Shown piece after piece: positions 54,262 to 55,506 of a stretch of DNA of 64,000 nucleotides. Position numbers and translations under genes: made by a program. Source of the DNA: Octopus vulgaris (taxonomy: Eukaryota); the NCBI GenBank assembly GCA_951406725.2, contig OX597835.1, positions 28,954,001 through 29,018,000 of the forward strand. The letters are read 5' to 3'. The notes under the pieces are model-generated. The model was not told where the DNA came from and searched no databases. It worked only from the letters and a program-made list of their open reading frames with translations. Each line of letters opens with the position of its first letter. The stretch's first letter is position 1.

Positions 54262-55506
54262 ATTTGTTTGCTTGTTATCAGTCGTAAGACACTTGTTGTT
54301 TTCACCGTTAATGCTTCTGTATTTCATGTTTCTGTATTCCATTATTGTTTTTTTTTTTTTTTTTTTTTTATATATCTGTCCCTTTTGCTGTCCTGGTGTT
54401 CGTATGCATTCGATCCTTCTTCCAGGAAATCTACGCTTCCAGCTTAGTTTTTCTAATGCTCGTTGCTTAGTTTTTCTTGGAGGGCTGGCCGTGATCTAGT
54501 AATCTCAAGATTAATCAGCCGAAATTACTACGATGATCCGGTTCTTGACTGAAGACTGAGGGTTTCGAATGTCCTGTCCGTGTTTATTGTATCGTCTTCT
54601 AAGAGTTATACGTTCTTGTCCATGTTGTATTTTTCTACATACCTTAACATATATTCCAGGCGCCCCGTACCCCCCTTAACATTAATGTGAGCACATATTC
54701 TTAATAATTGGTACGACTCTCTGTTTGTCTCTCTCTCTCTCTCATTTTTACTTGATCTGTCCCCCTCTCTCTCTTTTCTCTCTACTCATCCTCTTTTTCT
54801 CTTCTCTTTCCTCTGACTCTTTGGTCTAGTCTTCCACTACCCTCCTATTTCTTTGTCTCGCTCTGCACTCACAGGTCATTCTTCGACACCCATCCCTTCT
54901 CCTCTCTGATTCCTTCTTTCTCTCTCTTCTCTCTCTTTGTTGCGTTTGTCCCTCCTCTCTCTCTCTCTCTCTCTCTCTCTCTTCCTTTGCTTCTCTTTCT
55001 TTTCTTTTCCCTCTTCTCTGTCACGTGACTGTTGGCCGAAATCTGCCTTTCAGCTCCTGACCCTCGTCGTGTTAACATCGTTGTTTTTCGTCCGCCGCTA
55101 TAAAGGCTTCTTCCAATGCGCCAGAGAAAAAATTTGTTTGCTTGTTATCAGTCGTAAGACACTTGTTGTTTTCACCGTTAATGCTTCTGTATTTCATGTT
55201 TCTGTATTCCATTATTGTTTTTTTTTTTTTATATCTGTCCCTTTTGCTGTCCTGGTGTTCGTATGCATTCGATCCTTCTTCCAGGAAATCTACGCTTCCA
55301 GCTTAGTTTTTCTAATGCTCGTTGCTTAGTTTTTCTTGGAGGGCTGGCCGTGATCTAGTAATCTCAAGATTAATCAGCCGAAATTACTACGATGATCCGG
55401 TTCTTGACTGAAGACTGAGGGTTTCGAATGTCCTGTCCGTGTTTATTGTATCGTCTTCTAAGAGTTATACGTTCTTGTCCATGTTGTATTTTTCTACATA
55501 CCTTAA
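54262..55506 (+). mobile_element. Family F element with about 380-bp direct terminal repeats (54262-54647, 55132-55506) and a 484-bp non-coding middle
   Basis: Repeats identical except at the poly-T tract; inserted in (TA)n; no TG...CA ends, PBS or PPT seen, so PLE pseudo-LTR or retrozyme-like rather than LTR. Confidence 0.75.

Follow-up and report, generated by a model that had tools for sequence, protein, structure and literature searches.

The hammerhead-like RNA motif described here occurs in four copies in the 64-kb stretch of DNA that was analysed (the window), and its catalytic CUGANGA strand is broken between A9 and G10.1: the 5' strand of stem II lies upstream of block S and not after A9, and the gap is filled by a closing helix, P0, and by a hairpin that ends at G10.1. 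This break is the new feature; the block order NUH, GAAA, CUGANGA is that of the already known type SGC. Judged from the letters, six helices have the potential to pair, and the same layout is present in published consensus sequences of Naiads, which are Penelope-like elements (PLEs). We consider it probable that the motif folds as a single-molecule hammerhead with a split core and cuts itself after C54504, and that it does so within a Naiad-type element, where it would trim tandem RNA.

The features are collected in Table 1. Every conserved position is canonical in the 54-kb and 55-kb copies, including the G10.1–C11.1 and A15.1–U16.1 pairs, and all core words (CUGANGA, GAAA and NUH, with H not G) are present there. 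Stems I, II and III (6, 6 and 7 bp) adjoin these words, and their pairing is common to both subfamilies. The stem I strand (ending at 54510) and the stem II strand (starting at 54515) are separated by a 4-nt linker; helix B measures 7–8 bp and stem III 5–12 bp. All 49 pairs of the model are standard, five of them being G-U, and N7 is A, C or G within the repeat family. P0 and hairpin V form at high probability in both subfamilies (0.84–1.0 in the 54-kb copy, recurring in the 58-kb copy), even when folding is unconstrained. The pseudoknot-free minimum free energy (MFE) structure mispairs the core and is more stable than the nested pairs of the model, by 6.7 kcal/mol in the 54-kb copy and 14.1 kcal/mol in the 58-kb copy; the two pseudoknot helices return about 21 kcal/mol before loop penalties.

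Table 1. Features of the split-core motif and of the repeats that carry it in the window.
Feature	Position	Strand	Remarks
Repeat unit copy 1, pseudo-LTR-like	54262..54652	+	Begins directly after (TA)n
P0, 5' strand	54406..54419	+	Pairs with 54558-54572, closing the whole motif; pair probabilities 0.92-1.0 in the flank fold; also in the unconstrained MFE
Hairpin V	54420..54482	+	Basal 10 bp (54420-29/54473-82) ending immediately before G10.1; probabilities 0.84-1.0
Stem II, 5' strand (G10.1 = 54483)	54483..54488	+	6 bp with 54515-54520; unbonded to CUGANGA
Helix B, 5' strand; counterpart of the SGC/CSG 'interaction' stem	54489..54496	+	Forms 7 bp with 54535-54541 and has one bulge
Block S: stem III strand and AUC (54497-504), stem I strand (54505-10)	54497..54510	+	7-bp and 6-bp helices; cut predicted after C54504, by analogy
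Block G: stem II 3' strand (C11.1 = 54520), GAA, stem III strand (A15.1 = 54524)	54515..54530	+	From pairing
Helix B, 3' strand	54535..54541	+	From fold and alignment
Half of block C: stem I strand and CUGAAGA (C3-A9)	54543..54555	+	From sequence; stem II cannot come next
P0, 3' strand, with the conserved CGAAUG	54558..54572	+	From fold
Spacer between the near-identical copies	54655..55131	+	Single copy in the window; may be what a non-autonomous element has as its body
Repeat unit copy 2	55132..55511	+	Ends in (TA)n; identity with copy 1 is 99-100%, with a period of 859 across the motif; cut predicted after 55363
Second-subfamily copy with all six helices	58745..58930	-	A at 10.1; cut predicted after 58816; from descriptor and fold
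Second-subfamily copy, 5'-truncated, between microsatellites	14210..14430	+	Without P0 5' strand; A15.1 = C; likely dead

In the proposed mechanism, helix B and stem III would form first, as one hairpin, the loop of which would pair with the upstream strand of stem II and the downstream strand of stem I. P0 would clamp both ends and bring the unbonded A9 and G10.1 together, with the closing helix and the hairpin filling the break. Cleavage after C54504 would presumably leave a 2',3'-cyclic phosphate and a 5'-OH, and cuts at 54504 and 55363 would release 859 nt from a tandem precursor, in line with what has been suggested for the precursors of PLEs and for retrozymes. The repeat family itself may represent the pseudo-LTR or 3' end of a Naiad-type PLE, and cleavage may require assistance from the protein of this element.

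The cores of the four copies lie at 14312(+), 54549(+), 55408(+) and 58771(-), in agreement with an earlier note on this DNA, and the junction words that it listed (AUC, C-GAA-A and stem I followed by CUGA(A/C)GA) are found as it described them. The motif sequences of the 54-kb and 55-kb copies are identical, so the window holds three distinct sequences, a caveat that the note had itself raised. Its claim of four helices that keep their pairing despite sequence change holds over 20 aligned pairs in these three sequences: 93% of the cells pair and four pairs are changed on both sides, a result equalled in 9 of 500 shuffles, with slid controls pairing at 10–39%. With three sequences, this covariation support is suggestive only. 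Two of its statements had to be corrected: the 14-kb copy, said to have lost two helices, has just one mismatch in each of these two, and the motif extends over about 170 nt (54406–54572) and not 98 nt (54483..54580), P0 and hairpin V having been missed. Core lesions are present in two of the three distinct copies, namely C at position 15.1 (14287) in the 14-kb copy, which is also 5'-truncated, and A instead of G at position 10.1 (58837) in the 58-kb copy, where the read consensus of the second subfamily has G. These two copies are therefore damaged; only the 54/55-kb pair is intact.

Chance pairing in a decayed repeat is a scarcely credible explanation that is already largely refuted. A descriptor of the wiring, written post hoc with the motif already known, gave two strict matches in the window (cores 54549 and 55408) against three in 2764 dinucleotide shuffles, both strands included, or about 0.001 matches per shuffled window; with one mismatch allowed in stem II there were three matches (adding 58771) against 15 in 2764 shuffles. 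The post hoc descriptor and the small number of distinct sequences in the window (three) leave chance some room, yet the low rate in shuffled windows and the recurrence of the layout among unrelated Naiads argue against it.

As for the break itself, the earlier note had read the order as NUH, GAAA, CUGANGA with the partner of stem II upstream, and both sequence and pairing bear this out; no normal stem II can be placed after CUGANGA in any copy, as it had cautioned. Its idea of a rewired, pseudoknotted hammerhead missed by standard descriptors is well supported, except that the block order alone is no novelty. The Rfam hammerhead search that it proposed gave no hammerhead match: over the window there were no Rfam matches at the gathering threshold, and at E up to 10 there were none on the 54-kb copy and two on the 58-kb copy, which were judged to be chance. 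An ordinary type III or intact type SGC hammerhead, with stem II placed after CUGANGA through other pairing or through splicing, is very improbable. A second GAA (in CGAAUG) does lie 10 nt past A9, and AG precedes G10.1 in the 54-kb copy; however, the best stem past CUGANGA has 3 bp in the wrong context, with none in the 58-kb copy, CGAAUG is accounted for as a strand of P0, and Rfam finds nothing. Splicing that would join A9 to G10.1 was rejected, there being no GU donor after A9 and the AG not being kept in the second subfamily, as was an intact block C or use of the downstream GAA (no adequate stem, CGAAUG lying in P0). Pairing of the U-tract before G10.1 with the bases after A9 was also considered and was replaced by a longer fold.

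Hammerheads have been divided into blocks C, G and S, which were assumed to be uninterruptible, and six orders were therefore counted (Eckert, Friedrich, Weinberg, & Weinberg, 2023; PMC10085705). The motif shows neither the cyclic order CUGANGA, GAAA, NUH of types I, II and III nor a match to their Rfam models. It shares with type SGC (HRIMA-1 and variants) the order S, G, C, all core nucleotides, a short linker between stems I and II, and a fourth helix that joins the distal ends of these stems, helix B being the interaction helix between their flanks. In type SGC, however, the stem II strand comes directly (within 1–2 nt) after CUGANGA, whereas in the window motif it lies upstream of block S, block C is cut and the gap is bridged by two additional helices; SGC was also found only in metatranscriptomes (PMC10085705), in contrast to the animal genome considered here. 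The motif is outside types I–III and outside SGC as defined. The published descriptors (PMC10085705) require that CUGAUGA(U)G continue into stem II and cannot detect the split form.

Types SGC and CSG self-cleave in cis at 0.004–0.19 per minute and need the same fourth helix, which can be linked to stem III by 0–2 nt (PMC10085705), as it is in the window motif, so the tight geometry of this motif has precedent. Type CSG, published from only two metagenomic sequences (PMC10085705), has the identical chain from the stem II strand through helix B and block S to block G, and the window motif is a circular permutation of it: the piece B'–stem I–CUGANGA stands at the 5' end in CSG, bonded to stem II, and at the 3' end in the window motif. 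The split form could have arisen from CSG in a tandem repeat. A pattern scan of metagenome contigs returned nine loci, all GC-rich and without CUGANGA, which were rejected as chance, and a pattern scan of viral contigs returned none.

No hammerhead broken between A9 and G10.1 was found in the literature searched, which comprised the accessible sections of papers outside subscription and of preprints without their supplements; hammerhead variants ‘with additional helices’, mentioned in the accessible part of PMC13725137, are not traceable to the split form. Nor did this search yield a precedent for a two-helix insertion beside A9/G10.1, the known insertions there being 1–2 nt. One-base insertions between A9 and G10.1 occur in natural hammerheads, and that single extra bases are common at this step suggests that the backbone can exit there. 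We take A9/G10.1 to be the metal site of the hammerhead.

Minimal type I hammerheads in the pLTRs of canonical PLEs and in retrozymes, as far as the accessible sections describe them (PMC4209133; bioRxiv 10.64898/2026.07.22.740005), resemble the window motif in their terminal-repeat location and often have an extra base at the 5' end of stem II; they differ in circular permutation, a short stem III, dependence on dimers and an insertion of one base only. That these minimal PLE hammerheads act as dimers raises the question of whether the window motif, too, cleaves only as a dimer or in a tandem precursor, like other Penelope hammerheads. We regard this as distinctly unlikely. The 54-kb and 55-kb copies stand in tandem, a monomer is a tight multi-pseudoknot, and the linker between stems I and II of the 54-kb copy contains an 8-nt palindrome that could pair with itself (-9.0 kcal/mol), all of which would suit a dimer; however, what dimers rescue is a short stem III, and stem III here has 5–12 bp, the 58-kb copy has not kept the palindrome, and SGC and CSG cleave in cis. 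With stem III long and a strand swap unable to restore the A9–G10.1 bond, the dimeric form suggested in the earlier note is not needed, and the single-molecule fold remains our preferred reading.

The same wiring was found in Naiads, with which the earlier note had not connected the motif. These elements target (TA)n, form partial tandems and are described as being without a canonical hammerhead, with ‘HHR_core’ assigned to 10 and ‘HHR_half_core’ to eight of 54 consensus sequences (Craig et al., 2021; PMC8557442, accessible sections, where no structure is given for these cores). No structure for the Naiad cores was found either in the accessible text of the wider literature, including PMC3088659, PMC10162972, PMC11300833, PMC13725137, PMC4209133 and two 2026 preprints. 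In the Naiad file, 62 places with CTGA[ACGT]GA were inspected by eye, a count from which words broken by a line end may be missing. Split wiring was seen by eye in 11 of the 54 published consensus sequences (nine clean, two imperfect; about eight unrelated sequences), which range from cnidarians to cephalopods and are unrelated in sequence to the window family: three near-identical records from Acropora, one in the Clytia stretch, two close to part 12, one in an arthropod stretch close to part 19, Naiad_Obim and Naiad_Ovul, Naiad_Esco with an imperfect stem II, and one close to part 8 with a stem I of just 2–3 bp. In the Acropora example, P0 has 8 bp starting directly after A9 and the hairpin has 6 bp ending at G10.1, with 6 bp in stem II, 10 in helix B, 12 in stem III and 6 in stem I. 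Where traceable by eye, the hairpin ends at G10.1 and the helix begins at or near A9 in the other records too; the two records from Octopus have a weak P0 of about 3 bp, and hairpin V was not traced in Naiad_Esco. N17 is A, C or U in these sequences, never G. Both Naiad_Ovul and Naiad_Esco carry the half-core flag in the accessible part of PMC8557442.

Other arrangements were seen in the accessible part of the PMC8557442 supplement, where six nematode-stretch records are clean type CSG with block C intact and one spider-stretch place near part 17 resembles type SGC with long linkers. The remaining 44 of the 62 places showed no such fold by eye. A second CUGAAGA is present at the 5' ends of the Naiad consensus sequences from Octopus and leads directly into a helix of about 8 bp formed with sequence upstream; the other parts of a hammerhead are not evident there.

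The window family is like the Naiads in its (TA)n targets, partial tandems and 3'-end position; its motifs were not found in the Naiad consensus file, and no Naiad ORF was linked to it in the window. A Naiad ORF (N-terminal GIY-YIG, C-terminal RT) was not seen in 52000–61000, and the spacer (54655..55131) had no match to PLE protein in the one frame scanned. All four copies touch an AT-type microsatellite, and the TA-flanked partial tandem of 859 bp (54262–55511) fits the (TA)n bias and pseudo-LTR pattern of Naiads. Because the same layout recurs in Naiads reported without such an RNA, the split-core motif is likely, on the strength of these sequence comparisons, to be the ribozyme that these elements seemed to lack.

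The stretch was matched in 20 of the 24 sequencing runs listed, under seven organism labels and with no RNA run listed among them, and family variation was taken from the contigs of four runs (3519, 1011, 7 and 31 contigs). None of the 21 variable places listed falls in the core; nine lie in model helices and 12 are unpaired or outside. Pairing is kept by five of the nine helix variants and broken by four, three of them in P0 and one beside a deletion at 54492. This deletion removes the bulge of helix B, and in hairpin V the read variant 54477 T>C turns a G-U pair into G-C. In the second subfamily, the loose-end read consensus has G at N7 as well as at 10.1. The contigs of the four runs contained no joints and no piles of ends and are uninformative on cleavage.

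A fold that is real and conserved without cleaving, acting as a structural signal (e.g. for the reverse transcriptase of the element), is an unlikely reading of these data. It would agree with A9 and G10.1 being unbonded and with the Anolis PLE hammerhead, which according to PMC11167929 depended on protein and was not required for insertion in vitro. Rules specific to catalysis nevertheless hold across unrelated sequences, in which CUGANGA and GAAA are invariant, N7 is free, N17 is never G and the A15.1–U16.1 pair is kept, and these favour the self-cutting fold.

Taking the self-cutting fold as a basis, we lean towards a seventh natural hammerhead wiring, the first with the catalytic strand broken inside the core: the backbone would leave at A9 and return at G10.1 via a two-helix insertion, forming a five-helix junction, and the form would be the ribozyme of many Naiads, from cnidarians to cephalopods, interconverting with CSG by circular permutation in tandem repeats. 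If true, this would overturn the assumption of uninterruptible hammerhead blocks, which limits the natural forms to six, would place non-circularly permuted ribozymes in animal genomes at high abundance, would explain the apparent absence of hammerheads in Naiads, and would offer a new domain-insertion site for an engineered hammerhead.

The window is AT-rich eukaryotic DNA with many microsatellites. Copies of a SINE of an abundant type lie beside the repeats (53992–54150 and 59000–59186), and we presume that this SINE resembles an octopus SINE. A broken remnant of a Tc1/mariner-type transposase is found at 52165–52693 (-), with a match to Pfam PF01498 (E 2.3e-10). Directly past the (TA)n tail of copy 2, at about 55531–55597, there is a 19-bp inverted repeat, nearly perfect, that encloses a 9-bp hairpin and is MITE-like or a fold-back.
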